DNA of 64,000 bases from Elusimicrobiota bacterium (GCA_016207605.1 JACQPJ010000035.1:11345-75344), one strand, 5' to 3'; positions 3,873 through 58,317 are shown, counted from the stretch's first letter. Notes: generated by a model not told the origin, from the sequence alone. Translations and numbers: made by a program.

Positions 3873-3924
3873 GGGGCCGTCATGGTAGCAGATTGAACCG
3901 GAAACGGCTATAATCGCGCCGGTT

Positions 3925-38078: not shown

Positions 38079-38124
38079 AACCTTGTGGCCACGGGGAGCA
38101 TAGCATACACGCGGCAAGCCGCGG

Positions 38125-38970
38125 TTATTTCAACTCGGCCAGAAACGCGCGAAATGTTTGGAAGGACTGTCTCCGCATCTCCGCGGCATCGCGGTTCGTG
38201 TATTGCAGGGCGGTCCAGACCGGACCCGAGGAATTCTCCGTCGTGAAAGCCTCTTCCAGATTGCGCTTGAACTTGCGGTACCATGGGGCGGGGTGCTTGG
38301 CCGCCGTTTCCGCCATGCCTTCGACGACCCTCTTTCGCCATTCAGGCTTGAGCAAAACCTCGTAGATGTAGGCCAGGTCCTTGCCTTTCTTCTCGATGAT
38401 CGGCCGCCGCGTGAAGATCAGCCCCTTGGTCAGGACAAAGGCCGGCAGCGTCGGCACTTTGAACCTTGAACGAATCCTTTCGCCTTTGAGCGTTTCGCCT
38501 TCGAGAGAGACTGTCTCTGTGTGGGCCAGCAGAATGTCCGTGTACCGGAGGGCGGGCACGATCAGTCCGCTTTGGATCAGAGTGGAAGTATCCTCGCCGC
38601 TTCCAAACAAGGGAGTGATGAACTCGAACGGCACCGCGACCTTGCCCTTGCGATAGAAAAATCGGGTGGAAGGTTTTGATTTCTTCCCGAACGCCGTAAG
38701 ACCGAATCCCGAATCGGAGGATTCCACTATAAAGTCGGCGGCCTGCAGCGAGGCGACGATGCCTTTTTCTCCGCGCAGCGGAATTCGGGCCTCGATAGCC
38801 GCGTCCACATCGTTGGAGTGCACCGCGATCTCCGGCGACTCTTCCTTCCAGGCATATATTTGCGGCACCCATCCGCCGACGATGACGATGTCCGACAGAT
38901 AATCGCGCAGCGCGTCCAGCGCCGTGAAGAGAACCTTCTTGACGACTTCCGGCGAGGCTTCAGCGGGCAT
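38125..38970 (-). CDS. Nucleotidyltransferase-fold protein, AbiEii-like toxin of a type IV TA/abortive-infection pair
   Basis: IVIVGGWVPQ...SNDVDAAI is a G-G...D-x-D NTase signature. Overlaps the upstream AbiEi-like gene by 11 nt. Confidence 0.55.
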   Translation of the reverse strand: MPAEASPEVVKKVLFTALDALRDYLSDIVIVGGWVPQIYAWKEESPEIAVHSNDVDAAIEARIPLRGEKGIVASLQAADFIVESSDSGFGLTAFGKKSKPSTRFFYRKGKVAVPFEFITPLFGSGEDTSTLIQSGLIVPALRYTDILLAHTETVSLEGETLKGERIRSRFKVPTLPAFVLTKGLIFTRRPIIEKKGKDLAYIYEVLLKPEWRKRVVEGMAETAAKHPAPWYRKFKRNLEEAFTTENSSGPVWTALQYTNRDAAEMRRQSFQTFRAFLAELK

Positions 38971-39655
38971 CGCGCCACCTCGGCATTAGAACCCGGGAGA
39001 GGATGTGCTCGGCCTGCTCCCGGCCCCGGACCGGATAGCGGTAGCAGTCGAGATAGAGTTGGACCGCGGAGACGACAGGCAGCTTGCGGATCACCTGGGC
39101 CCCATGGAGGCCGGAGTCCGCGTAGTAGGGCTCGATCAAATGGATCGGCCCCAGGTTGTCCGGCTGCAGGCGCAGAACGTCCTGCCACGAGCGTTTCAGT
39201 TTCCCCGCATTGGGCAAATGGACATGGACCTCCTTGAAAGTCGCGAACGGCGCGACGAGAGAAGCTCCGGCCATGCAGGTCAGAGCCCAGGGACCCGGAA
39301 GGTGGGGGAGAGATTTGGATATCCGATTGAGGATGGCGTTCGCATCGGCGGCGCCGTCAATCGAGAATCGATAATACTTGACCGGCTTCATGGCGTACCA
39401 CGCCGCCCAATCGCGCAAGAGCTGGACCGGATCAAGAAACCGCGCCTCCGTGGGACTTTCCCGCGAGGCGAGCCCGATACGCTGCAGTTGGCGCAGGCTC
39501 AGGATCGCCAGGGCGGGGCTCGTTCCCGCCATTCTTGAGAGCTCTCGGATTCCCCAGACTTCGGCCGGAGCGGCTAAGGCGGTCCTCAACAGCATGGACG
39601 CGCTGTCGGCGAACGGATTCCGTTCTTGGGACGGCGGCGTTTTAAGGAGCTTCAT
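38960..39655 (-). CDS. AbiEi-like antitoxin/transcriptional regulator
   Basis: 231 aa. N-terminal wHTH-like GIRELSRMAGTSPALAILSLRQLQRIGL. The C-terminal domain ending LYLDCYRYPVRGREQAEHIL resembles AbiEi. Confidence 0.5.
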   Translation of the reverse strand: MKLLKTPPSQERNPFADSASMLLRTALAAPAEVWGIRELSRMAGTSPALAILSLRQLQRIGLASRESPTEARFLDPVQLLRDWAAWYAMKPVKYYRFSIDGAADANAILNRISKSLPHLPGPWALTCMAGASLVAPFATFKEVHVHLPNAGKLKRSWQDVLRLQPDNLGPIHLIEPYYADSGLHGAQVIRKLPVVSAVQLYLDCYRYPVRGREQAEHILSRVLMPRWRDAR

Positions 39656-39756: not shown

Positions 39757-40036
39757 TACTAATCAGCCCGCCTCAGTCGAAGATCAAGTTGGAGTCGACC
39801 ATCTCCTCTATGGCGTGGGTTTGGCATACACCAAACAAGTGAGCTTAGAATATTTTTCCCATCCCACATTTTTAGAAGCCACCCAGAAAAGAAGGTAGCC
39901 CAAGGTCAGCCTGGCAATCCCTTTTAGGACTACGGCCAAAGCAGAAGCTCCGGAATTCGGCTGGTCGGGCTACAGGAATAGTATAACGCATATCCCAATT
40001 ACCGCGAATGCTTTGTGTCAGTATTTTTATAAAAAT

Positions 40037-40466
40037 TCATGCACATGGTTGATCCATGCGTGCGCGATGACCGGCCAGAAACTCCATCGGCGAAAACTTC
40101 TTGTGCTGCTCGGCCACGTCCCGCCGCGCCAGGTGGACGTAGCGCCGGGTCATCTCCAGCGTGGAGTGCCCAAGGATTTCCTGCAGGCTGAACGAGTCGC
40201 CGCCGCTGCGGACGTAGAGCACGGCGAAGGTATGGCGCAGCGTGTGGGGGGACACTCGCACGCCCTCGATGCCTGCCTGGCGGCCGTAGCCTGCCACGAT
40301 TTTGCGCGCATCGCTGCGGTGGATCGGCCGGCCGCGCGGCCCGAGAAAGAACTGCGCGGCCTGGACGCGGCCTTGAGCCCGGGCGCGCGTAGTCCATCAT
40401 CGCCTGGCAGGTCCGCGCGGAGAACGGGACGCTGCGCTCCTTGCGGTCCTTGCCCATCACGGTCAA
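40037..40466 (-). pseudogene. Tyrosine recombinase pseudogene (N-terminally truncated, frameshifted)
   Basis: Two frames carry IDWLNGSLTVMGKDRKERSVPFSART and GIEGVRVSPHTLRHTFAVLYVRSGGDSFSLQEILGHSTLEMTRRYVH. Both are closely similar to the C-terminal half of the integrase at 43765..44748. The N-terminal ~200 aa are missing. Confidence 0.8.
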
Positions 40467-40519
40467 GGAGCCGTTGAGCCAATCAATTTAACCTTGTGGT
40501 GTTTCGGGCCCGGGGCAAG

Positions 40520-40550
40520 AAAAAACCCGGCCGTTTCGGGCCGGGTTTTT
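40520..40550 (-). terminator. Intrinsic (bidirectional) terminator hairpin next to att copy
   Basis: AAAAAA-CCCGGCC-GTTTCG-GGCCGGG-TTTTT. Confidence 0.6.
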
Positions 40551-40570
40551 ATCGCTTCTACCGTCGGAGA

Positions 40571-40616
40571 TGGTTGCGGGGGCTGGATTTGAACCAGCGA
40601 CCTCAAGGTTATGAGC
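40571..40616 (-). repeat. att site: 46-nt duplicate of the 3' half of tRNA-Met
   Basis: Identical to 58241..58286 (CCA end through to the anticodon loop). Diverges immediately after ATGAGC. Confidence 0.85.
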
Positions 40617-40681
40617 TTCACCCGTTTACGCGGAAGCTCTCTCCGTCGAGGACCAGCCCCAACTCCACGCGGTTTCAACGA

Positions 40682-41554
40682 CTAACCTTGTGGTCCTGCT
40701 GTGAGTATAGCAAATTGCCGGAGCGACTTGAGAATCGCTTCTCGTGACTGGAGGTTCATTTTGTAGAGGCTCTTGGACAGGAGGGTCACCGCCCGCAAAT
40801 CGAGATGGCACGCCAGGATGATTCGGGACGTGGCGAAACCCTGGAGTTCAGGGTCCTTGACGAAGAATTTCAGCCGGGTGAACGCCATTTCGTAACGGGC
40901 GACCAATGCCATCGCGTAAACGAATGGCAGGAACAAGAGCGCCAGGACGATGGGGAGTAGAAGTTCCAGGAGCGTCCCGAGCGTTGCAAACTTGCCGAAG
41001 TCGGCGCGGATCCGATAGCAAACAAACGCAAAGAGGCCGAAGCCAAGGATCGCCATTATGGTGCCCAGGGGCTTTCTCACGCTGGCGAACTCAGGCTTCA
41101 TCTCCGCTACCGCCAGCATCACGCCTATCAGGGTCGCAAATGGGATGAGAATCATTTCCAGTGGGAAGCTGAGCACGTGCAGGTTCATCAGAAAGTCGAG
41201 CAGCACGGCGATTTTGATGGTCTCCGCTGCTGCCTTCCGCAGAGAGAACCCTTCATCTGTCACGGCATTGAAGAACACCGGAAGGGCGGTCAGATACCAG
41301 AGCAGGGTGATTTTCAATCTCGACTGGTCCCACAGGCCCACCGCGCGAAGCCCGGCGACCATGCCCACGACATAGAGTCCCATCAACACCAGCGGAGTTG
41401 AGACCTTCCACTCCAGGAAGCTTCGAAGGACTTGGATCAGCGATTCCCGAATCTCGCGCATAGAACAGACCCAAAGCGCAAATACCGCCAACCATACCAA
41501 GCTGGCGGCCTCCCTATTATCCAGGTAACTGAACAGGAGCTTAAGACTCATCAT
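40682..41554 (-). CDS. Hypothetical polytopic membrane protein (last gene of extended hipBA operon)
   Basis: 290 aa with about 6-7 hydrophobic segments. ATGATGA overlap with the upstream gene. Confidence 0.6.
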   Translation of the reverse strand: MMSLKLLFSYLDNREAASLVWLAVFALWVCSMREIRESLIQVLRSFLEWKVSTPLVLMGLYVVGMVAGLRAVGLWDQSRLKITLLWYLTALPVFFNAVTDEGFSLRKAAAETIKIAVLLDFLMNLHVLSFPLEMILIPFATLIGVMLAVAEMKPEFASVRKPLGTIMAILGFGLFAFVCYRIRADFGKFATLGTLLELLLPIVLALLFLPFVYAMALVARYEMAFTRLKFFVKDPELQGFATSRIILACHLDLRAVTLLSKSLYKMNLQSREAILKSLRQFAILTAGPQG

Positions 41555-42084
41555 AGGCGAAAGCGCGAGAGCTTTTTGTTCAACGCGGCAAGATCGAACG
41601 CCTCCGGGTCATACTTGCCGCCAAGCCATTCAAGGCGTGCTTCATGTTCGGGATGCTTCGGATCGGCGATGATCTCAAGCGTCTCCTCGTACCCCGGGAC
41701 TCCGCCGCAGTCCTCCGGAGGGCAGGCCCGGGCACCCTCCAGGCAGATCGGATACTTCTTGGGATCGTCGGGCGGGAGGGTCTTTTCGACGAGCAGCGTG
41801 TGCGTCCAGCCGTCGCCGAAGTCGTACTCGTAGCGCCAGACCTCGCCCTCCTTCTTGATCAGGTCGCCAAGCCGGACGGTCTTCTCCATGGACGGCTTGA
41901 GCTCGCCCTTCCGATCGGAACGAAATCTGTGCTGATGGCAATCTTTCCAGCCCATCGCGCGCTGAATGATCTTGTTCAGCGTCAGGAAGGGAATCCAGCT
42001 CGGCACGAGGATGCGCCGCCAGATGGGCGGCTCGATGCCGTCGAGCGTGATCTTGAGCTGGAGAATGCCGATTGAGAGTTGCAT
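41551..42084 (-). CDS. pRiA4b ORF-3 family protein (PRiA4_ORF3 domain, function unknown)
   Basis: LQLKITLDGIEPPIWRRILVP...IIQRAMGWKDCHQHRF is the family hallmark. ATGA overlap with the hipA stop. Confidence 0.8.
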   Translation of the reverse strand: MQLSIGILQLKITLDGIEPPIWRRILVPSWIPFLTLNKIIQRAMGWKDCHQHRFRSDRKGELKPSMEKTVRLGDLIKKEGEVWRYEYDFGDGWTHTLLVEKTLPPDDPKKYPICLEGARACPPEDCGGVPGYEETLEIIADPKHPEHEARLEWLGGKYDPEAFDLAALNKKLSRFRL

Positions 42085-43331
42085 CAGGACTTGAGCACTT
42101 CCAGCATCTTCTTTGATCCGTCCGAGACGCTCTTCGTGATCTTGGCGATCGTCGCTCCAGCGCCGTGCGCCTTGGCGAACTCGCCGGCGGCCTTCTCCGC
42201 CATAGCCGGAGCGGTCTCGCCCAACTCGCGGCACGAGTCAAAGACCGCCTTCGAGGCGACTCCCGCCTCTTCCGCGAGCTTTTCCCAGTGCTCCTTGTGG
42301 ACCCACTCCGAACGGTATTGGCCGCCGACGCGCATGGCGAACTTGGCGGACAGGCGTCCGTAGACCCGCGTCGAGAGCAGGTCGTAAAGCGGAGTGAGCC
42401 GATAGTCGCCGCGCTTGATCAGCATGGAGAGGTTCTTGGCGTGCGCGTCGCAGTTGCCGATCAGGTAGTTGAAGATGACCCAGCGGATCATGATCATCTT
42501 GTCGAGGGCGGGCTGGGTGCTCTGATCTTCGACCAGGCCGAAGCAGGCTTTGAGTCCGGGGCCGCCGTCGGACTCGTACTTTTTCCCGTAGGGATAGCCG
42601 AGCGCCTGGAGAAAGTCCTCCTGATGGATTCGGCGCAGCTTGCCGTCGTCGCCGCGGAGCCGGTCGTAACGCTCGATCAGATAAAAGGGGTACTTGCCGC
42701 CGATGACGATCGAGATTGGCGCCGGCAGGCCGAGCCGGCGCGCCAGCTCCATGCAGTAGGCCTCGTTCTCGACGATATCGGGGAGATCGGGGATCGCGGG
42801 CTTGATGATGTGCGAGCTGGGATGAGAGCCGCGGGGCAGGAAGAACTTCCCGTCCTCGTAGAAAACGGGGATCTTCTGCTGCGCGCCCGCGAGCGACAGC
42901 CGCAGGTCTCCGTTGGCCAGCAGCAGCGGGTTCTGCGGCATCTCCTCGATCATGCGGTCGAGGTCCTTGCGGGCCAGCGGCTCGTAGCTGCCGGAGTCGT
43001 TCGTCTGCTGGCCCTCAGGCAGGATGGACAGCGCGCCCGCGCACTCGCCGCCGAGGGCTTCGAGCAGCTTGAAGTCGTTCGATTCGGAGATGCCGAGCTT
43101 GCCGGTGATCAGCCGCCGCGTAGGCCCTTCCGGAAGAAGGTTGCCGAAGAAGACGCGGCAGGTATTCTCATCGAACGACTCGGGCCGCAGGGGAAGGCGG
43201 ACGGAGATGGGCATCGCCTCCGGATCGGCCAGCCAGCCCGATTCGTACTGGAACTCGAAGTGCCCGCGATCGTCCTCGCGCAGGCGGCCGGCGAGCTTCG
43301 TCCCCCAATAGACGTTGAGGACGCCGCTCAC
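42084..43331 (-). CDS. hipA: HipA-family serine/threonine kinase toxin
   Basis: N-terminal LNVYWGTKLAGRL...FEFQY, FFGNLLPEG and LAGAQQK, with the kinase core GNCDAHAKNLSML. GTGA overlap with hipB. Confidence 0.85.
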   Translation of the reverse strand: MSGVLNVYWGTKLAGRLREDDRGHFEFQYESGWLADPEAMPISVRLPLRPESFDENTCRVFFGNLLPEGPTRRLITGKLGISESNDFKLLEALGGECAGALSILPEGQQTNDSGSYEPLARKDLDRMIEEMPQNPLLLANGDLRLSLAGAQQKIPVFYEDGKFFLPRGSHPSSHIIKPAIPDLPDIVENEAYCMELARRLGLPAPISIVIGGKYPFYLIERYDRLRGDDGKLRRIHQEDFLQALGYPYGKKYESDGGPGLKACFGLVEDQSTQPALDKMIMIRWVIFNYLIGNCDAHAKNLSMLIKRGDYRLTPLYDLLSTRVYGRLSAKFAMRVGGQYRSEWVHKEHWEKLAEEAGVASKAVFDSCRELGETAPAMAEKAAGEFAKAHGAGATIAKITKSVSDGSKKMLEVLKS

Positions 43332-43570
43332 TCGCCGAACTCCTTGCGCTTGATGAGGACGTTCAAGCCGAACCCGTGCAGGACCTTGAGGACCTTGCCC
43401 AGATGGAGCGTGGGTTTTCCATTCTCCAAGTCCGACAGGAATCGCGTCCCGACGCCGCAGAGGGCCGCTGCTTGGGCCTGCTTGAGGCCGGCGTCCTTGC
43501 GCGCCTGCCGGACGATCTCGCCGATGTCCTCGGCGCTCTTCGCAATCGTCCGCTGTGTAGTCGTGTTCAT
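43328..43570 (-). CDS. hipB: HipB-like XRE-family HTH antitoxin
   Basis: 80 aa. IGEIVRQARKDAGLKQAQAAALCGVGTRFLSDLENGKP. Confidence 0.8.
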   Translation of the reverse strand: MNTTTQRTIAKSAEDIGEIVRQARKDAGLKQAQAAALCGVGTRFLSDLENGKPTLHLGKVLKVLHGFGLNVLIKRKEFGE

Positions 43571-43620
43571 TTTCCCGCTCGGTAATATTTTTGCAGTTAT
43601 CCGCCTTATTTGAGATAATT

Positions 43621-43634
43621 TTCCCGAACGGGAA
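43621..43634. promoter_or_regulatory. Perfect palindrome TTCCCGAACGGGAA, putative HipB operator 1
   Basis: Lies 51 nt upstream of the hipB start and is repeated exactly 50 bp further upstream. Confidence 0.5.
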
Positions 43635-43670
43635 TATTATACCCGTCCGGGGCGATTTACGCAAGGGATA

Positions 43671-43684
43671 TTCCCGAACGGGAA
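43671..43684. promoter_or_regulatory. Perfect palindrome TTCCCGAACGGGAA, putative HipB operator 2
   Basis: Identical to 43621..43634. A degenerate third copy, TTCCCGCTCGGTAA, is at 43572..43585. Confidence 0.5.
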
Positions 43685-43764
43685 AATACGCCCTCAAAAC
43701 GGTCATTTTATACCCGATCGCGCCTTTTTTTGCGCCTCCGGAAAGCGGGGTAGGGTAGTACCCC

Positions 43765-44748
43765 TTATTGAACCGGCGGTGTCCAGCTTGGTACGCTCAG
43801 AGGCGTAGCGCTCGAGCGTACCAAGCTGGAGCGGCCCGCTCGCGCGTCCTGCGCCAGCGCCTCCATCGGTGAGAACTTCCTGTGCTGCTCGGCCACGTCC
43901 CGCCGCGCCAGGTTCACGTACTGCCGGGTCATCTCCAGCGTCGAGTGCCCGAGGATTTCCTGCAGGCTGAACGAGTCGCCGCCGTTGCGGACGTAGAGCA
44001 CAGCGAAGGTGTGCCTGAGCGTATGCGGCGATAGCCGCACGCCATCGATCCCGGCTTCCCGGCCGTAGCGGACGATGAGCTTACGCATCTTGCTGCGGCA
44101 GATCGGCTTGCCGGTCCGGCCCAGGAAGAACTGCCCGCCTTTGATCGGCCGCTGGCTGCGGGCGCGCGCGTACTCGAGCAGCGCCTGCGCCGTGCGCGCG
44201 CTGAAGGGCACGGAGCGCTCCTTGCGGCCCTTGCCCATGACCACGGCCGCGCAGTTGACCCAATCCACGCGCGCCGCCTCCAGGGACAGGACCTCGGAGA
44301 TCCGCAGACCCGAGTCGAGCATGACCATCATCATTGCGCGGTCCCTGACGCCTTCCCAGCTCCGCGTGTCGGGGGCCTCAAGTAGCTGGGCTGCCTGCTC
44401 CGGGCTCATGGGCCGGATCAGCGCGCGCTCGCGCCGCGGCCGCTCGACCAGTTCCATCGGGTTGCGGGCGAGCATGCCCTCGCGCGTCCAGAACCGGAAG
44501 GCGCAGCGGATGCCGCCGTAGGTCCGGAAGACGGTCTCGGAGGAATGCCCCTTGGCCCGCAGCGCGGCCAGGTGCTCGCGCAGCAGAGCGGGCGTGACGA
44601 GCGCCAACTCCCTCGCGCCGCGCCGGGCCAGGGAGGCCTCCAGATCGCGGAGGATATGCCGGTACCAGACCACGCTGCCGGCGGCCAGGTTCAGGGCCGT
44701 GCAGCGCGCGAGGAAGGCCTCTCGGGCGGCTTCCAGGGAGCCGTTCAT
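43765..44748 (-). CDS. Tyrosine recombinase/integrase (XerC/D-like)
   Basis: SGLRISE, GKGRKERSVPF, HTLRHTFA and LGHSTLEMTRQY give the R..HxxR..Y catalytic set. ATGA overlap with the upstream gene. Confidence 0.85.
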   Translation of the reverse strand: MNGSLEAAREAFLARCTALNLAAGSVVWYRHILRDLEASLARRGARELALVTPALLREHLAALRAKGHSSETVFRTYGGIRCAFRFWTREGMLARNPMELVERPRRERALIRPMSPEQAAQLLEAPDTRSWEGVRDRAMMMVMLDSGLRISEVLSLEAARVDWVNCAAVVMGKGRKERSVPFSARTAQALLEYARARSQRPIKGGQFFLGRTGKPICRSKMRKLIVRYGREAGIDGVRLSPHTLRHTFAVLYVRNGGDSFSLQEILGHSTLEMTRQYVNLARRDVAEQHRKFSPMEALAQDARAGRSSLVRSSATPLSVPSWTPPVQ

Positions 44749-45563
44749 GCCGCCGCCTCCGCTGGCGCGCCAGCCGGGGGTATCGTGAATACCTGAACGG
44801 ATTCGAGGCTGCCGCGGCGAATGAATCGGCACTGTCTTGGCGCCGTCCTGAACTCGGCCAAGCCGGCCGCGTAGACGTTCGTTCGCTGCACCGTCGTCGC
44901 GAGATGGACGATGTGCTCGACTCCGGTGGGCCAGCCGGTCAAATAGAGAACCTTGCCGTCAAAGGTCTGCCGTGCGCCCTCGGTGAACATGGCCCGATAG
45001 TGCTCGCGCGACTTGGACGTGAGCTCCACCTCCACCTGATGCGCGACGCCCGCCGCATCGGCGATGCGCAGATCCGGCAGTCTCAGCTTGGTGAAGCCGC
45101 GCTTGATTCGACCGCGGCGGTACAGGTCATCCCAGGTCCGCCGCGCCGTTTGGACCTTGAGGCCGAGCAGTTCGGCCAGGGTCAACCCCACGCCGCAGAC
45201 CGCGATCTCGTGCCGTAGATACGCTTCTCCCACGCCGCGACTCGGATGGTTGAAGACTGCCAATTGATGCCGCTTGAGTTGCTCATGGCCCCGGCCTGTC
45301 AGCAGGTAAACCTGCCAGTAATTCGTCGGCCTCCAGGTCCGGATCAGCCCCGCGCCGGCCAGCGCGCTCAGCCGTTTGTAGGCTCCGCCCCAGTGGTCCT
45401 CGCGCCGCAAGTCGTTGAAAAACAGCCTGATCCGCTCCGGCTCCGGAAGCTCCGTCCTGAAGAAAACCCCGTCGATTTGTCCCAGTCCCATCACGCCCCA
45501 TTTCTCGATCGCCGCCAAGATATTTAAGTCTCGTTTGGTCAGTTCCATTCTCCTCCTCTTCAT
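44745..45563 (-). CDS. Replication-relaxation family protein (wHTH plus PD-(D/E)xK-like), putative
   Basis: MELTKRDLNILAAIEKWGVMGLGQI, YLRHEIAV and LPDLRI...VEVEL. Start at 45563 or 45548. Confidence 0.55.
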   Translation of the reverse strand: MKRRRMELTKRDLNILAAIEKWGVMGLGQIDGVFFRTELPEPERIRLFFNDLRREDHWGGAYKRLSALAGAGLIRTWRPTNYWQVYLLTGRGHEQLKRHQLAVFNHPSRGVGEAYLRHEIAVCGVGLTLAELLGLKVQTARRTWDDLYRRGRIKRGFTKLRLPDLRIADAAGVAHQVEVELTSKSREHYRAMFTEGARQTFDGKVLYLTGWPTGVEHIVHLATTVQRTNVYAAGLAEFRTAPRQCRFIRRGSLESVQVFTIPPAGAPAEAAA

Positions 45564-45596
45564 CTCCAAAATTATTTGCTGCCCCTCGCCCACCGC

Positions 45597-45653
45597 CTTC
45601 CCGACCCCTCTACCACAACCAATCTGCATGGTTGGGGGAGAGGGGTCGGGAAG
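45597..45653. repeat. 57-nt inverted repeat (15-bp perfect arms) upstream of the replication-relaxation gene
   Basis: CTTCCCGACCCCTCT...AGAGGGGTCGGGAAG, with partially complementary inner arms ACCACAACC/GGTTGGGGG. Confidence 0.7.
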
Positions 45654-45782
45654 CGTCATCGGCCTCAACGATGACGAGGTGGGCGATCTTGGCCAGCAAA
45701 TATCGATAGTTTTTGATTGGGAGCTCTCCGAGCACCCCCGCCAACACGTTGGCGGACCTGTTGGTGGACTCTTCGCCCTGCT

Positions 45783-45915
45783 ATTACTATTCCGGCCGAA
45801 AAGCAAAACCCGCACACGGCCCCCTACTTACATATCGGGCGGGAGGACCAAATCGGCACAGACCTCCCACTTACTATTCCGGCGAGAGAGCCAAATCAGC
45901 ACATGGCCCTACACT
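45783..45915. repeat. Iteron-like degenerate direct repeats
   Basis: ACTATTCCGGC-N-GCAAAACCCGCACACGGCCC and ACTATTCCGGC-N-CCAAATCAGCACATGGCCC lie 86 nt apart. An intervening CCAAATCGGCACA sits inside the GGGAGG...CCTCCC hairpin. Confidence 0.5.
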
Positions 45916-46149: not shown

Positions 46150-46488
46150 TTAGGCTTTGGTAGGTCGCGAACAAGCGATATGCTTCGCTCGCGTCGCGTG
46201 GCTTTGGGGCAGGTAGGCGTTCATGAAGCTCTTGAAGAGAGCCCCATGATTGGGGATAAGCAAATGGAGCAACTCGTGGGCGATGACCTGGTCCTGGAAG
46301 GAGACGGGCTGGGACAACAGGTCGGCGCTGAAATAAACTCGGCCAGCGGTGGAGCACGAGGCCCATTTATTGCGCATAGCCTGGACGTAAACCCGCTTAG
46401 GTTGGACACCGATCTTAGTCGCCCAGCGGCCCACCCGCTGCTTGAACAGTGGCCTAGGGACCGGCTTGCCTCGTGGTGTCGAGATCAT
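46150..46488 (-). CDS. DUF45/YgjP-like (M48/SprT-like) zinc metallopeptidase-fold protein
   Basis: NKWASCSTAGRVYFSADLL...VIAHELLHLLIPNHG (HExxH). ATGA overlap with the hsdR stop. Confidence 0.7.
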   Translation of the reverse strand: MISTPRGKPVPRPLFKQRVGRWATKIGVQPKRVYVQAMRNKWASCSTAGRVYFSADLLSQPVSFQDQVIAHELLHLLIPNHGALFKSFMNAYLPQSHATRAKHIACSRPTKA

Positions 46489-49370
46489 TTGCTGCGCAGC
46501 TTGATGATCTGCTCGGCCATTTCTTTCATGCGTTCCAGGCCGACGGCCGGGCGCAGCAGCTTATAGAGTTCGGCTTTCAGTTGGCGGAACTCCTCCGCGT
46601 TCGCCGCGAAGTGGGGCAAACGCACGAACAGGGCGTCCACCTCCCGAGCGATGGCCTCAGCCTTAGCCGAGCCTGCACGGTCGAGCAGCCAGAAGGCCGC
46701 GAACGCCTCGGGAGAGAGTCCGGTCTTCTCGGCCTTGCGCCGGGCTTCATCGTACTCCCGCACGAGCTCCTCGAGCTCCTGGAGGGCGTCCTCCGTCGTC
46801 GTCTGGCGGTCTTCGTAGTTGCGAAGAATAGTTTCGGCGCGCTCGCCGATAGGGATCAGGAAGGGCTGGCGCGCGCCCTGCGAGTGAGCAAGCCCTGCCA
46901 GGGTGCGGACCAAGTTGATGATCTTGGCCGCCGGCGGAGCCTGCTTCTTCTTAAGAGCTTCCAGGGTTTCCTCGTTGATCGCCACGGTCTTGGTCACCGT
47001 GTCGAGCCCGAAAGCCTGGGCATGCTCGCGAACGATGCTCTCGGTCTTCTTCATGAGGTCCGAGTAGAATCCGCGGTGAGGGTTCACTGCGGCCCGGATC
47101 ACCTGATAAAGCCTGCAGAGCTTGGCGTAGTCGTCCATGAACGGCCGCATCATGGGGTCGGGCGAGATGATCTCGTAGAGGTTCTCAAGCTTCTTGAAGA
47201 AGTCGAAGAACCCGTCGCGTTTGGCGATCTCCGCGAGCGCCGCCACGGCCCGCTCCACGGCCTTGTCGTCCATGCGCCCGCGGCAGAGGGCCAGGTAGGG
47301 CGCGGCCTCTTCGTTCATCATGCGCACAAAGAGGGCCTTCAGCGCGTCGATGTTCTTGATGACGCTCTGCACCACATCCGAGTCGAAGGAGAGCGCCTTC
47401 TCCATGCGTTCGAAGATACCCACGAAGTCCACGACCAAGCCCGCGGGTTTCTTGATCCCGTCATCCTCGTAGGGCCGATTGACGCGCGCGATCGCCTGGA
47501 GCAAGGTATGGTCGCGCATAGGCTTGTCCAGGTACATGCAGTAAAGGATCGGTGCGTCGAAGCCTGTGAGCAGCTTCTCGGTGACGATCAGAATCTTGGG
47601 TTTCTCGCCCGGCTTGGTGAAAGCCTTGCGGACGTGCTTTTCCTGGTCGTCCTTGAGCTTGAACTTGGCCAGCGCCGGCGGATCGTTGTGGGCGGAGGTG
47701 TAGACGACGGTGGAATAATCCTCCGGCAGGACACGGTCGAGCTCCTTCTTGTAAAGGGCGCAGGCTTCCCGGTCCACGCCGACTAAGAACGCCTTATAGC
47801 CCAGCGGCTCGATGTTTTCTTTGAAATGCTTGGCGACGAACTCCGCGACCTGGCGGACCCGGTCCTTGGACTTGAGGAACGCCTTAAGCGTGACGGCGCG
47901 CTCAAGGATGTGGTTGAGCTCCTCGATGTCGCTGATGCCTTCAGTCTCGGCCAATGCCCAGAACTCCTTTTCAAGCATCTCCCGGGGAACGCGGATCTCG
48001 TTAGGTGCCAGGGCGTAGTGCAGCTCCAACGTCGTCCCGTCTGCGATCGATTCCTGGATGGAATATTTATCCAGGTAGCCCTGGGCGTCGTCCTTGCCGA
48101 ACACCTTGAAGGTGCCCTTGCCGTAGGCGATCTGGTCGATGGGCGTCCCGGTAAAGCCGATAAACGTCGCTTTCGGAAGGGCTGCCTGGAGATAGTTCCC
48201 GAGGTCGCTACCGGTGGAGCGGTGGGCCTCGTCCACCAAGACAAAGATGCTGTCGCGAGTGCAGAGGTCCTTGTCGGCTTTCTCGAACTTGTGGATCATC
48301 GAGACGATGAGCCCGCGGTAGTCGGTCCGCAGAAGCTCTTTGAGGTGCTTCTTGCTCTGGACGATCTCGGCCTTGCCCTCGCCCAAGATGCTGGTGATCC
48401 AGCCCGAGAGTTGGCCTTCCAGCTCGTTTCTATCGACCAGCATCAGGACTGTCGTTTTCCCAAAAGAGGGATTCTCCAGCAGTTGCCGCGCTGCCGTGAT
48501 CATCGTGAAGGTCTTGCCTGATCCCTGGGTGTGCCAGATAAGGCCGGTCTTCTTAACGGGGTCGAGCGCCCGTTCCACGATTTTCTCGACGGCTCGGGAC
48601 TGGTGCTGGCGCAGGACGGCCTTCTGGAGCTCGTCGTCCTTCAGGAAGAAAATGATCCAGTCGCGCAGGAGCTTGAGGAACCGCTCGCGCCCGAAGAAGC
48701 GCTTCACCTTCGCCTCGAAGTTGCCGGGCTCCTCTTCCTTCCAGTTGAAGATGCTCTTTCGGTCGAGGTTCCAAGTGACGCCGTAGTGAAAATCGAGCAG
48801 TTGGGTCGCCTCGAAGACTTGGGGGGAGACCATCAGCTCCGGCGTCTCCTCGTGGTAGCGCCTCAGCTGTACCACGGCGCGGTCGATTCCATCCGCATAC
48901 TTGGCTGACTTGGTTTCGGCTATGGCGACTGGGATGCCGTTAATCAGGAAAACGACGTCGGCGCGGTTGCCCTTCTGGCCATTGGTGTATTCCCACTCAT
49001 CGGTGACGTGAAAGACATTGTTTCCGGGGCGCTCGAAGTCCACCACATTGACATTGCGCCGGCGCTTCTCGCCCTCGGAATGAATCGAGTGGTCGCCGCG
49101 CAGCCACTTGAGAATTTCGGCGTTGCCCTCAATCGTGCACCGGACGTTCTCGATACGGGCGATGATGTCGTCCGCGTTCTTCCCGTCCACCACCCCGGGG
49201 TTTAGGGCATTCAGCTTCTCGCGCAACACCTGATAGAGCAGCCATCCGCCGGCACCGCGTCTGAGTCGAAGGACCTCATCGGCAGGGAGATAGGTCCAAC
49301 CGATCTCCTCGGCATAACCGATGAGGGGGTTCTGGACCGCGTCGCGTTCACCGCCGAGCTGTGGAGGCAT
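46485..49370 (-). CDS. hsdR: Type I restriction enzyme R subunit
   Basis: N-terminal PD-(D/E)xK (RADVVFLINGIPVAIAETK). SF2 motifs TQGSGKTFT, VDEAHRS, FTGTP, TEKLLTGFDAP and QAIARVNR. Confidence 0.9.
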   Translation of the reverse strand: MPPQLGGERDAVQNPLIGYAEEIGWTYLPADEVLRLRRGAGGWLLYQVLREKLNALNPGVVDGKNADDIIARIENVRCTIEGNAEILKWLRGDHSIHSEGEKRRRNVNVVDFERPGNNVFHVTDEWEYTNGQKGNRADVVFLINGIPVAIAETKSAKYADGIDRAVVQLRRYHEETPELMVSPQVFEATQLLDFHYGVTWNLDRKSIFNWKEEEPGNFEAKVKRFFGRERFLKLLRDWIIFFLKDDELQKAVLRQHQSRAVEKIVERALDPVKKTGLIWHTQGSGKTFTMITAARQLLENPSFGKTTVLMLVDRNELEGQLSGWITSILGEGKAEIVQSKKHLKELLRTDYRGLIVSMIHKFEKADKDLCTRDSIFVLVDEAHRSTGSDLGNYLQAALPKATFIGFTGTPIDQIAYGKGTFKVFGKDDAQGYLDKYSIQESIADGTTLELHYALAPNEIRVPREMLEKEFWALAETEGISDIEELNHILERAVTLKAFLKSKDRVRQVAEFVAKHFKENIEPLGYKAFLVGVDREACALYKKELDRVLPEDYSTVVYTSAHNDPPALAKFKLKDDQEKHVRKAFTKPGEKPKILIVTEKLLTGFDAPILYCMYLDKPMRDHTLLQAIARVNRPYEDDGIKKPAGLVVDFVGIFERMEKALSFDSDVVQSVIKNIDALKALFVRMMNEEAAPYLALCRGRMDDKAVERAVAALAEIAKRDGFFDFFKKLENLYEIISPDPMMRPFMDDYAKLCRLYQVIRAAVNPHRGFYSDLMKKTESIVREHAQAFGLDTVTKTVAINEETLEALKKKQAPPAAKIINLVRTLAGLAHSQGARQPFLIPIGERAETILRNYEDRQTTTEDALQELEELVREYDEARRKAEKTGLSPEAFAAFWLLDRAGSAKAEAIAREVDALFVRLPHFAANAEEFRQLKAELYKLLRPAVGLERMKEMAEQIIKLRSK

Positions 49371-49373
49371 GGC

Positions 49374-50630
49374 CTATTTCGCTTTGGTCAGGTTCTTCAG
49401 GACAGACGACATGAGTTCGAACAGGGCATGCTTCGAAACAGCCTCCTCCTTCTCCTTCGGTTCTTCTCGTCCAAAGAACTTCTCCGTAAGCCTCGCTTTG
49501 ATCTCGTTGCGCTGAGCTTCAGGCAGCAGAACGAGGTAGGCGTCGATGGATGCGAGTTCCAGGTGCGTTTTCCTGAGTGCGTTCTCCCGATCGCGATGTT
49601 TTGACGATTCCTGGGCAGCGTAGATCGCAGGAATCGCGATCACTACCGCCGTTCCTAGTCTGAACGCGAAAGTATGCCAGCTCACATCGTGGAAGATGCT
49701 GAAGAAGAACGCGATACCTGCGACCACGATCATTGCGCCCATTAGCCACAGGGCCGCGGTGCGGAGCCAATCAGCAGTGGAGCGCTCGGTATCGGCCGTG
49801 GTCTTGAAGTGTCCCGCGAATGAGGCGGAGCCGATGGCGCCAAAAATCTTATCGACCTCCGCTTCCCGAGTCTTCAGATTCTGGAGGTGCTGGTCGCTCT
49901 TCTTTTGTAGGTCCTTGAAGAACTCGTCGCCGCGCGTCTTCTGGGCCTCCTGGAACTTCTTGGCATCTTCTTCCCGGGCTTTCAGCAGCTGTTGAAATTC
50001 GGCGGCGCGTTTCGCAGCGTCAGCCGCATAGGTATTCGTACGGGTGGTCTCGGCGCTCGTAAATTGCTGCTGGTACGCGGCAATGGACTGGTCCAGCCGG
50101 CCCTTCTGCTGCTCGATTAAGGCTGCCAATCCGTCAAGCCGGGCTTTCTCGGCGTCGATGGACTTGGTAATCGCGGCTACAGCGGCTTTTTCATCAGTAA
50201 CGCCCTTGCGTATCTGAAGGAGCTCCTCGGATATTTTCGACTGGAAGGCCTTGGCCGCCTCGGTAACCGTCGCTACGACTGTCCCTGCGTCCTGCCGCTC
50301 GCTAGGGCGCAAAAACGCCAACAACTCGTCAGCCATCGAGTTCGCATTGTTGATAGCTCCAGCGTTGGGGTTTTGAGAAAAGGCGGTGGCGTAGTTCTGA
50401 AGGTTGTTCGACCAGGTCCCGATATTCGCCCACGCGTTCGGATGATAGAGCTCTGGGTCGAGGTTCTGTAGGCAGGCCAGAACGGCCTTAACGGCCTTCA
50501 GGAGGCGCGCGTAATTGGGAAGATCGTCCCCGGTCAGCTTGTCCGTCTTTGCTGATTCAAGGAGGCGCAGGGCCTCCTTTACCCGCTCGATCGGCTGCTG
50601 TGCGTTAAAGACATCATGCCATCGCGACAT
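49374..50630 (-). CDS. Hypothetical coiled-coil protein with C-terminal 2-TM module (cassette gene X3)
   Basis: 418 aa. Long A/K/E/Q-rich helical region, then AALWLMGAMIVVAGIAFFFSIF and FAFRLGTAVVIAIPAIYAA, then a charged tail. Ends 3 nt before hsdR. Confidence 0.6.
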   Translation of the reverse strand: MSRWHDVFNAQQPIERVKEALRLLESAKTDKLTGDDLPNYARLLKAVKAVLACLQNLDPELYHPNAWANIGTWSNNLQNYATAFSQNPNAGAINNANSMADELLAFLRPSERQDAGTVVATVTEAAKAFQSKISEELLQIRKGVTDEKAAVAAITKSIDAEKARLDGLAALIEQQKGRLDQSIAAYQQQFTSAETTRTNTYAADAAKRAAEFQQLLKAREEDAKKFQEAQKTRGDEFFKDLQKKSDQHLQNLKTREAEVDKIFGAIGSASFAGHFKTTADTERSTADWLRTAALWLMGAMIVVAGIAFFFSIFHDVSWHTFAFRLGTAVVIAIPAIYAAQESSKHRDRENALRKTHLELASIDAYLVLLPEAQRNEIKARLTEKFFGREEPKEKEEAVSKHALFELMSSVLKNLTKAK

Positions 50631-50656
50631 GGTTCCCTCTCATCCCCAGACTTGCT

Positions 50657-50956
50657 TCATTGCGCTCTCGCAATAATAACCTGCATCCTTGAATCGTTTG
50701 GATTGTAGCCTGGGCGCGTCTTCGGATAGATGTCGCCAGTTACGGAGAGATTTCGAATCTCCGAAAGCAAATAGAGTCGCCAGCCCGGCAGTTCGCCTGA
50801 GTGGCTGAAGCCCGCCGTTTGGAAACAGGAAAGGACTTCGTGGCCAGTATCCTTGTGCAGGCCATAGGTGTGCGGTTCAGCCGTCCCAACGAGCCCGTTG
50901 TACCAGAAGGTGATGATTCGGCGGTGGCTTACTGCGGCAGTCAGTTCTGAACCCAT
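50657..50956 (-). CDS. Small WYL/Sm-SH3-like beta-barrel protein (cassette gene X2), tentative
   Basis: 99 aa. RRIITFWYNG...AEPHTYGL...LSCFQTAG...WRLYLLSEIRNLSV resembles the WYL-domain pattern. Confidence 0.45.
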   Translation of the reverse strand: MGSELTAAVSHRRIITFWYNGLVGTAEPHTYGLHKDTGHEVLSCFQTAGFSHSGELPGWRLYLLSEIRNLSVTGDIYPKTRPGYNPNDSRMQVIIARAQ

Positions 50957-50968
50957 ATTGTGATCCTC

Positions 50969-52549
50969 TTAGCTAGCGGTCTTCCCGTATTGGATCTTGC
51001 AGAGCGCGACTCTGAATCCGAGCCCCTGAATTAGCTTCACATGAGTTAGAAGATGGATTTTGCTGAACAAAAACATATCCGTGGCGGCCGAGGCCTTCCC
51101 CCGCATGGGCAAGGCGAAGACGAAGCAGGCCTTCCGCGTGGGCGTCTCGATGAGATGGCCGGACCATTTCTTTGTGAGTATACCCGCGACCTTGGCACGG
51201 TAGGTGTCATCGCCGCGCAGGAGCTGGGCAGAGACGCTGCCTTGCGCGAAGAGGTGGCTCAAAGTGGCCGAGTCGCGCATACGTTTGACCGCGATGAAGT
51301 ACCCCTCGTGCGTGGCAAGGTCGCAGACCTCGATCCTGTTGTGTCCTTCGACATGAACGAGCTTCTTGTCGAGGAGGAGCCAGTCCTTCTGCTTGGCCGC
51401 GCGCTCATTGTAGTCGCCTTCCTTCTCGCCCTCGTTCATGCGTGGCATCTTAAGCCGGGCCGTGATGTCTTCAAGAGCGCCGATTTGGCGCTTTATTCGT
51501 TCTACGAACGAGCGCCGCGCGTGGAACCACTGGCCAAAAGTCAGGGTATAGGTGTCCTGGCTATAGGTGACCTCACAGACCAGGCACTCTCGCAGTGAAA
51601 GTCTCTCCGTGGCGGGATTGCCGTCAGAGTCGAGGCCTACGACCCAGGTCTTATCGGGATCGGGCTGGACGTCAGGGTAGGCGTCGTAGAAGTCGTAAAC
51701 CGCGCCGATGTGGAGGTCGTGGACTTGGACGTTCTTGTGGCCCGAACTGATCTGGAACTGCTCGACTCGAGTCTCGTCGATGAAGTTCGGGAAGGCGGCC
51801 ACGATGTGCCCGCGCTTGCGCTTGGCCAACTGCTCGGCCAGCTCAGAGTCGAGCGTGGTAAGTACGGGGTCGGAGGATTTAACCGTTTCGAAGCTGTCGG
51901 CAAATCCGAAGTGTTCCTTGTATTTATCGGATTTGTACTCCTTGAGTAGTTCCTCGCACTTCTTCCCGAGTTGAGGAAGAGAAACATCGCAGGTGATGTG
52001 CATTGAGTCGGAGCCGCTGACGTTGCTAGCGACATCCTTGTCCTTGGGTTTGCCGGAGACGTAGCGCACCAGGTCGATCTGGGGGTCGAGGCCGAAATCC
52101 GAGACGGCGCTTTCCACGCTGACATGGGTTCGCTTCTGCTTGACGACCTGCTCCAGGTTCCGGGTATCGACTGTCCGGAGCTTGGCGGGATCCATGATAT
52201 TGAAGGCGCCCATGAGCCCGAATCGCGGCTCTATCTTAGACCGGTCCAGTGCCAGGAAGCCGTAGCCGAATGTGACGGCGAAGACCCGCCCACCAGCTTT
52301 CAATAGAAGGACAAAGGCACTGCTCGCGGTGTGGATGCGCAGGCCGCCGGTATCGAAGTGATCGCCGAGGAATCCAAGCCACTTTGGGGGCTTGAATCGA
52401 GTGGTCTGCACGAAGGCCTTACAGGGGTAGGGCAGCTGCGAGGCGCCCTTGAGTTCCTTGTAGGCATTCGGGCCGGCCAAGCTCTCCGGCTTGATCAGGT
52501 CGTCGAAACCCTTGACGCTGTCTCGGAATAGGTGAATCGAGAGTCTCAT
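50969..52549 (-). CDS. TIGR04141/DUF6119-like sporadically distributed protein (cassette gene X1), tentative
   Basis: 526 aa. N-terminal MRLSIHLFRD...FVLLLKAGGRVFAVTFGYG and C-terminal IEVCDLATHEGYFIAVKRM (nuclease-like). ATGA overlap with the hsdS stop. Confidence 0.5.
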   Translation of the reverse strand: MRLSIHLFRDSVKGFDDLIKPESLAGPNAYKELKGASQLPYPCKAFVQTTRFKPPKWLGFLGDHFDTGGLRIHTASSAFVLLLKAGGRVFAVTFGYGFLALDRSKIEPRFGLMGAFNIMDPAKLRTVDTRNLEQVVKQKRTHVSVESAVSDFGLDPQIDLVRYVSGKPKDKDVASNVSGSDSMHITCDVSLPQLGKKCEELLKEYKSDKYKEHFGFADSFETVKSSDPVLTTLDSELAEQLAKRKRGHIVAAFPNFIDETRVEQFQISSGHKNVQVHDLHIGAVYDFYDAYPDVQPDPDKTWVVGLDSDGNPATERLSLRECLVCEVTYSQDTYTLTFGQWFHARRSFVERIKRQIGALEDITARLKMPRMNEGEKEGDYNERAAKQKDWLLLDKKLVHVEGHNRIEVCDLATHEGYFIAVKRMRDSATLSHLFAQGSVSAQLLRGDDTYRAKVAGILTKKWSGHLIETPTRKACFVFALPMRGKASAATDMFLFSKIHLLTHVKLIQGLGFRVALCKIQYGKTAS

Positions 52550-53820
52550 GGGGCTATGCGGACCTTCCCTGTCATAAGCTGATGGAGCATCGAGGCAAAG
52601 AGAGAATTAAGCTCATTCTCTTTCGCCGTGGCGGTCAGGGTGCTCTGGTCAATCGCACTCAGAGTATCGGCCACTTTTTGCTGCTGGTTCAGAGGCAGAA
52701 GCGGGACCTTCTGGCGACGCACGTCCGTATCCGTGACCGCTGGGTAGCTAGCGCCATGCTGCACGCGTCCCAGGGCCTCGAAGAACTCAGGACGCTGGAC
52801 CGCGTAGTAAAGAAATTGTGGCAATAGCTGGTCGCGATCGGCTCGTAAAACACAGAATGCGGTAGAGCAGAATTGCCCGTCCAATTTGTGAGGGACCAGC
52901 GCAACCCGCTTCAGCGTCGGACGAACAGTCGCAACAATAACATCGCCGCTCATAATTGGCTTGCGCGCCCTGCTTGGGGCCGATTCAGGTGTATGCGCTG
53001 CCGTTGAGGTTATGCAGTAGTCCTCATTTGAGACGGCGGACACGTCTACGTACTCGAATTCTTTTTCTGGAGAAGCCATTCGGACTTTGAGGCAGATCTT
53101 GTCAAGATGGCCCCACGAATATTTTGAATCAGACTCTTGTGGGAAAACCTCGCGTAGAGTTGCGGCCTTTAGCTCTCTTAGGGCTGCTATTGTCTTGCTT
53201 TGAGTTTCAACGGCCGCCTCGACTTTCGCAAGTACCGTCGAGATAGCGCGCTGCTCATCCAGTTGAGGAAGAGGAATGGCGAATTCCTTTAGTCGCGCAG
53301 ATGAGAGATTGGGGATGGTCGTCCTGTTTGCGGCACCTTCATAGACCTTTCGATGAAGAATCACTTCTTGGAGCCAGTACATGGCAAATCGGGGCTCGAT
53401 ATGGGGGACAATTCGTCTAAGCCGATGAATATGGTTTTGATACAGACAATCGGGCAGTTCGTTGCTCCAGATCGCTGTCCGCCCAACTTCTCCGCCCTCG
53501 CAGACCAAAAGATCTCCGAGTTGAAGTTCCAGTTTTTTGGATTCCGCATCCGTGAAGTGCATGCGATCTACAGAGGAGAGGTTAATCTTGCCCCAGAGGA
53601 CATTGGAAGTTCGCAAAAACGGTCTGGGGGACGGACCACCACGACTCTCGGCTGACATAGCCTTCCCTTGTTGAACATCGAAAAGGCTGCCAAGGGAAGC
53701 GAGTCGCCAGTCACGCGGAATCTGACCGACTTCAGTCATATGAGATTGAGATCGCTCGCTATCGGTTTGCACAGCACCCTGAAGTATTTTGCGTCGGGAA
53801 GTCGATGAGGTGGTGGCCAT
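52546..53820 (-). CDS. hsdS: Type I restriction-modification specificity subunit
   Basis: Two target-recognition halves. Conserved spacer LPQLDEQRAISTVLAKVEAA and C-terminal LNSLFASMLHQLMTGKVR. Confidence 0.85.
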   Translation of the reverse strand: MATTSSTSRRKILQGAVQTDSERSQSHMTEVGQIPRDWRLASLGSLFDVQQGKAMSAESRGGPSPRPFLRTSNVLWGKINLSSVDRMHFTDAESKKLELQLGDLLVCEGGEVGRTAIWSNELPDCLYQNHIHRLRRIVPHIEPRFAMYWLQEVILHRKVYEGAANRTTIPNLSSARLKEFAIPLPQLDEQRAISTVLAKVEAAVETQSKTIAALRELKAATLREVFPQESDSKYSWGHLDKICLKVRMASPEKEFEYVDVSAVSNEDYCITSTAAHTPESAPSRARKPIMSGDVIVATVRPTLKRVALVPHKLDGQFCSTAFCVLRADRDQLLPQFLYYAVQRPEFFEALGRVQHGASYPAVTDTDVRRQKVPLLPLNQQQKVADTLSAIDQSTLTATAKENELNSLFASMLHQLMTGKVRIAP

Positions 53821-58133: not shown

Positions 58134-58181
58134 CGTTGGACCCTCACTAACCTTGTGGTCTGGCGAGGGTTTAGAAACAAG

Positions 58182-58209: not shown

Positions 58210-58240
58210 CGTTTGTTTCTCGACGAGAAACGCCGCTAAA

Positions 58241-58317
58241 TGGTTGCGGGGGCTGGATTTGAACCAGCGACCTCAAGGTTATGAGCCTTGCGAGCTACCG
58301 GGCTGCTCTACCCCGCA
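58241..58317 (-). tRNA. tRNA-Met (anticodon CAT), CCA encoded
   Basis: Cloverleaf by hand: acceptor TGCGGGG/CCCCGCA, D arm GAGC/GCTC, anticodon stem CAAGG/CCTTG with loop CTCATAA, T arm GCTGG-TTCAAAT-CCAGC, discriminator A, CCA. It lacks the initiator 3xG-C stem. An Ile2 (lysidine) identity cannot be excluded. Confidence 0.9.

Follow-up and report, generated by a model that had tools for sequence, protein, structure and literature searches.

The window analysed here, a stretch of 64,000 nucleotides (nt) of DNA from an Elusimicrobiota bacterium (GCA_016207605.1, JACQPJ010000035.1:11345-75344), carries at positions 40682-43570 four overlapping genes: the toxin-antitoxin pair hipB and hipA, a PRiA4_ORF3 gene, and a gene for a polytopic membrane protein. 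With a probability of roughly 0.7, this locus is a composite of separable units, an autonomous hipBA module followed by variable cargo, at the att-distal end (att, attachment site) of an integrative island in tRNA-Met. The four-gene operon is physically real, yet its genes have come together locally and do not represent an architecture that is conserved; in evolution, the two tail genes are separable from hipBA. A first-pass annotation of the window had suggested that these two extra genes may be an accessory sensor/effector pair of hipBA; the membrane gene is found in none of the eight informative hipBA relatives and the PRiA4 gene in two, which speaks against such a pairing, and the comparison that the annotation had proposed as a check, of whether the genes downstream of hipA are conserved in relatives, has come out largely against it.

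All four open reading frames (ORFs) are present where the first-pass annotation placed them, contiguous, co-oriented on the minus strand, and overlapping. The first, hipB (43328-43570), encodes a helix-turn-helix (HTH) antitoxin/repressor of 80 amino acids (aa), which matches HTH_3 (E=4.9e-9) and TIGR03070 couple_hipB (75.7 bits, cut-off 71.65); hipA (42084-43331) encodes a full-length HipA-family Ser/Thr kinase toxin of 415 aa, composed of Couple_hipA (E=7e-26, residues 5-103) and HipA_C (E=2.4e-50). The PRiA4_ORF3 (MM3350-like) gene (41551-42084; 177 aa; PF07929, E=7.7e-63), PRiA4 for short, is a promoterless passenger abutting the hipA stop codon, and the last gene (40682-41554) encodes a polytopic membrane protein of 290 aa, whose large, unnamed family conserves an N-terminal LDNRE motif. 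The kinase-core motif GNCDAHAKNLSML that had been read in HipA is in the sequence, as is, in the third protein, the pRiA4b ORF-3 hallmark LQLKITLDGIEPPIWRRILVP...MGWKDCHQHRF. Two of the stop-start overlaps described earlier stand: the hipB stop codon overlaps the GTG start of hipA by 4 nt (GTGA), and PRiA4 and the membrane gene meet in ctATGATGAgt, with an overlap of 4 nt if the first ATG is the start and of 1 nt if it is the second. The hipA/PRiA4 junction, in contrast, reads tccTGATGcaa, a TGATG with a 1-nt overlap and not the ATGA claimed, although the coordinates given with that claim already imply 1 nt. Consensus scans, which are weak evidence, predict no sigma-70-like promoter or terminator within the cluster, and the first terminator-like hairpin 3' of it lies at 40524-40542, beyond the att repeat; an Rfam scan of 40000-44000 yielded nothing above chance. 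GC content at third codon positions steps down across the hipA/PRiA4 junction (hipB 0.86, hipA 0.88, PRiA4 0.80, membrane gene 0.72).

Eight close relatives of the window hipBA, with HipA identities of 77-91%, are informative about the tail, in that sequence is present downstream of hipA. At the DNA level, the window hipBA is similar to nine related Elusimicrobia loci (75-82% identity); this similarity starts near 43730, in the operator region, and breaks off at 42124-42081, at the hipA stop codon or no more than about 40 nt from it (L008-L010, L012, L111), while in L013-L015 it ends inside hipA. Behind the HipA most similar among those described (91%; L016) stands a Schlafen AlbA_2 gene (SLFN_AlbA_2; PADLOC candidate PDC-S50), overlapping the hipA stop codon by 4 nt; in two loci nothing follows, as behind the HipA of 84% identity, where the neighbouring sugar-metabolism genes are convergent (L017); behind one of 82% comes an apparently chromosomal gene (a 378-aa ORF; L010); behind one of 80% a 436-aa HEAT/SEC-C gene, and then the island terminus (L008); and behind one of 77% two unknowns, of 151 and 203 aa, again followed by the terminus (L012). 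In L111 (81%) a 521-aa SEC-C gene comes first and then a PRiA4 gene, which is 45% identical to that of the window. The exception to the breakpoint at hipA is L011 (80%), where the similarity (76% DNA identity) extends 73 nt beyond hipA, into a PRiA4 stump: the first 28 codons of a window-type PRiA4 are followed by an unrelated, convergent response-regulator host gene, and hipBA is intact. A profile hidden Markov model (HMM) scan of these loci detects the membrane family in none of them. The PRiA4 family is represented in only the last two of the eight relatives, as the L011 stump and as the L111 copy behind the SEC-C gene. As the L111 copy is just 45% identical, it was therefore acquired independently; as the L011 hipBA is intact beside the stump, hipBA therefore survives the loss of its tail.

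In L008 (6282-7592) and L111 (3119-4684), the genes directly after hipA encode differing helical-repeat proteins that end in a SEC-C metal-binding motif (…GRNEPCPCGSGRKYKKCCG); in L111, this gene and the PRiA4 gene behind it overlap by 4 nt. Directly upstream of hipBA in L010 (3210-4529) lie a second hipB-like gene, a HipA-like N-terminal subdomain (3434-3727), and a kinase core (3843-4529), which together look like a HipBST-type split system adjoining the HipBA system.

The tail of the cluster also occurs away from hipBA. In L001 the gene order is DUF6088 (AbiEi-like)-AbiEii-Metallophos-PRiA4-membrane protein; the membrane protein is the closest homologue of the one in the window (92% identity), and PRiA4 is 79% identical. 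The DNA identity between the two loci (87%) starts at 42081, within 10 nt of the PRiA4 start, and spans PRiA4, the membrane gene, and the att region. In L006, PRiA4 (70% identity) likewise stands behind DUF6088-AbiEii-Metallophos, and the next gene encodes a soluble protein of 383 aa; in L007 a truncated copy of PRiA4 is followed by a gene for a soluble protein of 421 aa. Both of these soluble genes are unrelated to the membrane protein of the window. These alignments indicate that the PRiA4-membrane cassette moves independently of hipBA.

The PRiA4 gene of L001 (2542-3077) switches frame near its C-terminus, appearing as two overlapping HMM/tblastn segments in different frames, and the membrane gene behind it is intact; the frame change is either decay or an assembly error. 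The metallophosphoesterase, of 189 aa, comes third after DUF6088-AbiEii and directly before PRiA4 in both L001 (1973-2542) and L006 (2020-2589), and the three genes may constitute a three-gene variant of AbiE. The AbiE-like pair of the window itself (38125-39655) was compared with the AbiE genes of L001 and L006 as a local source for recombination, and was rejected, being unrelated to them.

The other half of the cluster, judged by its motifs, has all the sequence features expected of an active type II HipBA module. HipA aligns to the structures of E. coli HipA (2wiu/3tpd; E=9e-48) and conserves, relative to E. coli, the P-loop Ser (RLSLAGAQQK), the catalytic D-x-H-x-K-N (CDAHAKN), and the Mg-binding YDLLS; with these kinase motifs, an unsplit N-terminal subdomain, and an adjacent upstream HTH antitoxin, the module falls into HipBA (HipA family sensu Gerdes et al. 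2021). It does not fall into HipBST, since HipA, at 415 aa, retains the N-terminal subdomain and neither extra gene is HipS-like. The control region (43572-43684, minus strand) comprises three operator-like palindromes flanking a sigma-70-like promoter: the palindromes, TTCCCG-N2-CGGGAA, are at 43572-43585, 43621-43634, and 43671-43684, with a spacing of 49-50 bp, and the promoter lies between them (-35 TTGCGT, 43664-43659; 17-nt spacer; -10 TATAAT, 43641-43636). In the window, palindromes in this arrangement occur solely upstream of hipB, and every relative whose sequence reaches far enough upstream of hipB keeps their number and spacing there; by analogy to E. coli hipBA, HipB presumably binds to all three. 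HipA has about 8,000 homologues, the closest of which are almost all from Elusimicrobia metagenome-assembled genomes (MAGs), and only short, weak matches in PADLOC (PDC-M03A). This part of the cluster is thus a new member of a well-known family, and routine.

The place of both halves is given by the island. The tRNA-Met gene (CAT; 58241-58317, minus strand; ARAGORN) is the integration target of an array of elements, and an exact 47-nt copy of its 3' end (58240-58286) forms the att repeat at 40570-40616 (minus strand). An integrase next to the tRNA (57165-58133, the first of the array), the repeat at the far boundary, and an atypical composition (GC 0.60 in 38000-58300, as against 0.70 in the flanks) together identify a tRNA-integrated genomic island. 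The second of the three integrases in the tandem array, a tyrosine integrase (43765-44832, minus strand; Phage_integrase, E=2e-37), is located directly upstream of hipBA, and related integrase sequence flanks L006, L008, and L012; the third is a remnant belonging to the next element (40037-40466, minus strand; 79% DNA identity to 43853-44241). No third copy of att is found between the first and the second integrase-bearing elements.

The end of the island is a conserved terminus of 145 nt (40570-40715, minus strand), which reads TGCTATACT...CCACAAGGTT...CCTCGACGGAGAG and then runs into the 47-nt copy of the tRNA-Met 3' end; the terminator-like hairpin with its T-run beyond it (40524-40542, minus strand) matches the hairpin 3' of the real tRNA-Met. 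The whole block is kept in L001, L007, L008, and L012 despite their differing cargo; L006 shares its tRNA-proximal part. In the window, the last approximately ten codons of the membrane gene fall within it. Because it is bounded by the toxin-antitoxin module on one side and the conserved terminus on the other, the segment 42083-40716 is regarded as a cargo slot.

A 9-mer, CCACAAGGT, occurs four times in the window (0.21 expected), each time on the minus strand and at an element boundary. Two copies, at 58150-58158 and 40491-40499, precede the first integrase and the third integrase remnant, respectively, by about 17-25 nt; one, at 40685-40693, falls in the last codons of the membrane gene, and one, at 38080-38088, at the junction between the AbiE-like module and the core genome. 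The island termini of L001, L008, and L012 share this 9-mer, that of L007 has it with one mismatch, and it is possibly a binding or core site of the integrase.

The PRiA4 gene belongs to a family that is widely carried by mobile elements. The protein matches PF07929 with 211.7 bits (gathering cut-off 26.6) and MM3350 (PDB 2i1s), the sole relative with a solved structure, with E=3.8e-37; its AlphaFold2 (AF2) model (mean predicted local distance difference test, pLDDT, 93) superimposes on 2i1s with a template modelling (TM) score of 0.81. Beyond 2i1s, the search of the PDB shows a weak ubiquitin-like β-grasp similarity over about 80 residues, in which the N-terminal half resembles the SUMO E1 UFD, UFM1, and LC3 (target-normalised TM 0.5-0.6, with poor E-values); in a viral structure library the model matches uncharacterised giant-virus proteins only. 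The family has invariant Cys114, Cys121, and His50, near-invariant His52 and His95, and a conserved CPPEDCGG motif, and these residues suggest a metal or active site. The sequence has no match in PHROG, PADLOC (E<=0.01), or NCBIfam, and no functional study of PRiA4_ORF3, pRiA4b ORF-3, MM3350, or PF07929 was found in the literature searched. An indexed search returned about 8,000 matches at E<1e-10. Family members are present on 2,760 of 72,556 plasmids (four were sampled, of which three carry the gene near Tn3/IS transposases or resolvases and one among DNA-repair and ATPase genes) and on more than 120 prophage-like viral contigs. Among 80 such viral loci analysed, the immediate neighbours include terminase gpA, head-tail attachment, capsid, IS66, and GIY-YIG genes; within 5 kb of PRiA4, all 80 lack genes for HipA, HipB, AbiE, and the membrane family, and in none does PRiA4 precede a protein with multiple transmembrane segments. 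Conversely, none of 22 viral HipA loci has a PRiA4 or membrane-family gene. Speculatively, PRiA4 could be a small soluble passenger of mobile elements that works by binding to a protein or a ligand, or in regulation. PRiA4_ORF3 is among the commonest uncharacterised passengers of plasmids and prophages, and its hard-wiring to a toxin-antitoxin operon here offers a handle on its function.

The membrane protein was correctly described in the first-pass annotation as having about six to seven hydrophobic segments (hydropathy gives five to seven, and the AF2 model is all-helical, with six to seven long helices); what the description lacked is the large family behind the protein, with its LDNRE motif. 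It has no match in Pfam, NCBIfam, PADLOC (E<=0.01), or PHROG, and its AF2 model (pLDDT 76) has no meaningful match in the PDB (best E=0.41, TM 0.2). A word-indexed search gave six relatives, and the orphan status that this implied was overturned by an exhaustive profile search, which yields 4,225 representative clusters at 50% identity, 2,231 of them at E<=1e-30. Members come in two size classes, of about 285 and about 440 aa, and those that bear a name are all called 'hypothetical' or 'membrane protein'. The family is nearly absent from plasmids (3-4 of 72,556 records) and absent from phage records; a copy in Salmonella has no counterpart in E. coli. In ten distinct loci, PRiA4 accompanies the family in L001 only and HipA in none, and the neighbours are mutually non-homologous, many of them of a defence type: TIR_2/PDC-S66, beside Thoeris, AbiTii, and a reverse transcriptase (L102); AAA_13/PDC-S06 and DUF3800 (L109); AbiE pairs (L105 and L106, the latter with a CopG-like gene); and Mrr (L002). 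In L004 and L105 the family member is preceded by ORFs of 73-78 aa. Since the family is found repeatedly beside TIR, AAA_13, AbiE, and Thoeris genes, it is a reasonable candidate for defence screens, and one may speculate that the protein is a stand-alone effector of defence islands, of an abortive-infection or an exclusion type.

These neighbourhoods also bear on the possibility that PRiA4 and the membrane protein form a two-gene module of their own, in which a soluble regulator, sensor, or antitoxin-like partner would be paired with a membrane-damaging effector and hipBA would merely be the neighbour. The pair is co-inherited in the window and L001, overlapping or closely spaced; the family members in L106 (CopG-like), L004, and L105 likewise have a small or regulatory gene in front of them, and in L102 and L109 the member follows a defence-type enzyme. 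The window and L001, however, count as a single evolutionary event, given that their cassettes are 87% identical in DNA; in L006, L007, L111, and the 80 viral loci PRiA4 is found with no member of the membrane family, and nine of the ten loci of that family lack PRiA4; and in L001 it is PRiA4 that is apparently frame-shifted while the membrane gene is intact. A dedicated two-gene module is thus an unlikely explanation, and the composite of an autonomous hipBA with exchangeable cargo accounts better for these loci.

Several observations weigh against the composite reading. PRiA4-family genes are found downstream of this hipBA clade in three of nine loci, which represent two lineages (the window with L011, and L111), and this recurrence could reflect a functional affinity instead of a shared island scaffold; moreover, few close relatives were sampled. 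In all four cases from the PRiA4 clade of the window, the gene lies right against a toxin-antitoxin operon, at -1, -1, +1, and +4 nt from its stop codon, and on a Xanthomonas plasmid the order is PemIK, two small ORFs, PRiA4. Finally, the four genes, whose stop and start codons overlap and between which no promoter or terminator is predicted, are probably transcribed as one, which would tie the expression of the tail genes to the autoregulation of hipBA. Taken further, these points lead to the idea that members of this PRiA4 clade are promoterless tail cassettes of toxin-antitoxin operons (HipBA, AbiE-metallophosphatase, perhaps PemIK), made only upon de-repression of the operon's promoter and in the window delivering a member of the large membrane family as a membrane-acting second effector. 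This is a tentative proposal with the odds well against it; if true, the toxin-antitoxin promoter would act as a sensor of infection or stress for unrelated cargo.

A true four-component system, in which a sensor/effector pair of PRiA4 and the membrane protein modulates HipA or is triggered by it and so makes hipBA a defence module, is more doubtful still, and a real functional coupling of the tail genes to hipBA is quite unlikely. The overlapping stop and start codons without predicted signals between them are compatible with such a system, as are the PRiA4 gene or remnant downstream of hipBA in L011 and L111, the location in an island with a type I restriction-modification (R-M) system, and the TIR, AAA_13, and AbiE genes that adjoin the membrane family elsewhere. 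Set against this, the membrane gene is missing from all eight informative relatives, hipBA remains whole both beside a truncated PRiA4 (L011) and without any PRiA4 (L008, L010, L012, L016, L017), the same cassette stands behind AbiE in L001, and the link fails to appear in any of the viral PRiA4 or HipA loci. The ten organisations of Hip operons distinguished by Gerdes et al. include none with PRiA4 or such membrane genes (PMC8262856), a catalogue that a true four-component HipA system would have extended. Nor does a defence role of a HipA kinase need extra genes, since two-gene HipA-family systems have already been validated experimentally as anti-phage (PMC13092281). That the contig is an assembly chimera joining hipBA to the PRiA4-membrane cassette is highly improbable and was rejected: the window apparently comes from a MAG, its PRiA4 protein is recorded from just one contig, of 97.6 kb, its closest relatives are Elusimicrobia MAGs, and composition steps at the hipA/PRiA4 junction, but this junction recurs in L011, an independent assembly (76% DNA identity, 73 nt into PRiA4), the order PRiA4, membrane gene, att is supported independently by L001, and a frame-precise 1-nt overlap would be an unlikely product of misassembly.

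As a composite, the locus would work as follows. HipB would repress the hipBA promoter via the palindromes and neutralise HipA; free HipA would phosphorylate a translation factor (an aminoacyl-tRNA synthetase, if it acts like its E. coli homologue), leading to translation arrest and a stop of growth, and the payoff of the module would lie in the stabilisation of the island, in abortive phage defence, or in both. PRiA4 and the membrane gene would have arrived through recombination at the hipA stop codon, filling the slot at about 42083-40716; with no intergenic space and no promoter of their own, they would most likely be read through from the hipBA promoter. Their products would act on their own, outside the toxin-antitoxin mechanism, as members of two broad families, both borne by mobile elements or islands and ever changing in their neighbours. 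The first-pass annotation knew of no description of this architecture, and no account of the four-gene arrangement was found in the literature searched; most likely, it is undescribed because it is not a recurrent system.

The remainder of the array contains further cargo. A type I R-M system (hsdM, hsdS, hsdR) lies between the first and the second integrases. Its operon (46485-55715) has a DUF6119 gene (50969-52549) and a gene for a 418-aa protein (49374-50630) inserted between hsdS and hsdR, the latter protein with a weak LeoBC-like match in PADLOC; HsdM has an N-terminal HTH_3 domain, and a YgjP-like metallopeptidase fragment (46150-46488) overlaps the end of hsdR. The non-coding stretch between a 356-aa ORF (44745-45815) and the R-M region contains, at 45784-45909, two direct repeats of 39 nt (79% identical, 87 nt apart) and no copy of att. 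Beyond the att repeat, the pair at 38125-39655 consists of a 231-aa protein with a weak resemblance to AbiEi_2 (E=0.007), overlapping a 281-aa protein without family match; the two genes were probably carried by an older element, now decayed, behind the integrase remnant at 40037-40466. The first-pass annotation had placed the cluster on an island beside R-M and HEPN genes, of which the integrative island and the type I R-M system are borne out, but the HEPN neighbour is confirmed by no family search, its sole trace being a PADLOC match to CARF_HEPN (E=0.0085) for 38960-39655.

Among known systems, the hipBA part is closest in plan to the HipBA of E. coli K-12 and Shewanella, with which it shares an antitoxin gene of the HTH type upstream of, and overlapping, a full-length HipA with N-terminal Couple_hipA, as well as the P-loop Ser, the catalytic Asp/Asn, the Mg-binding Asp, and several palindromic operators around the promoter. 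It differs in that the aligned region of HipA is clearly diverged from that of E. coli; where the operators of E. coli hipBA are four TATCC-N8-GGATA sites, the window has three TTCCCG-N2-CGGGAA sites at 49-50 bp, plus two 3' genes in read-through position. HipBST (E. coli O127, Legionella) is likewise a Hip-kinase operon of more than two genes; there, however, a short kinase, HipT, is accompanied by its detached N-terminal subdomain, HipS, as the additional gene (PMC8262856), whereas the window has a full-length HipA and two additional genes without relation to Hip proteins. HipAD/DS-6 (DefensePredictor, PMC13092281) also places a HipA-family kinase in a defence context, but its partner is a DUF3037/DUF1829 protein and not HipB, and it is without a PRiA4 or membrane component.

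For the cargo, the nearest likeness is to PF07929/MM3350 proteins and the 'TnpR'-annotated passengers on elements of the IS1096/Tn3 type, which agree with PRiA4 in sequence, fold, and carriage by mobile elements; the difference is that the gene in the window is joined directly to the stop codon of a toxin-antitoxin operon. The setting as a whole resembles the genomic (defence) islands that integrate into tRNA genes, with its tyrosine integrase, its repeat of the tRNA 3' end, its lower GC content, its R-M and toxin-antitoxin cargo, and its tandem accretion. It departs from them in that the element is very small, consisting of an integrase, a toxin-antitoxin module, a slot of 1.1-1.5 kb, and a terminus, and in that this 145-nt terminus is well conserved and is entered by the reading frame of the cargo. 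It provides a clean example of a mini-island scaffold, in which the breakpoints of cargo exchange fall at a stop codon and the terminus supplies the final codons of a cargo ORF.

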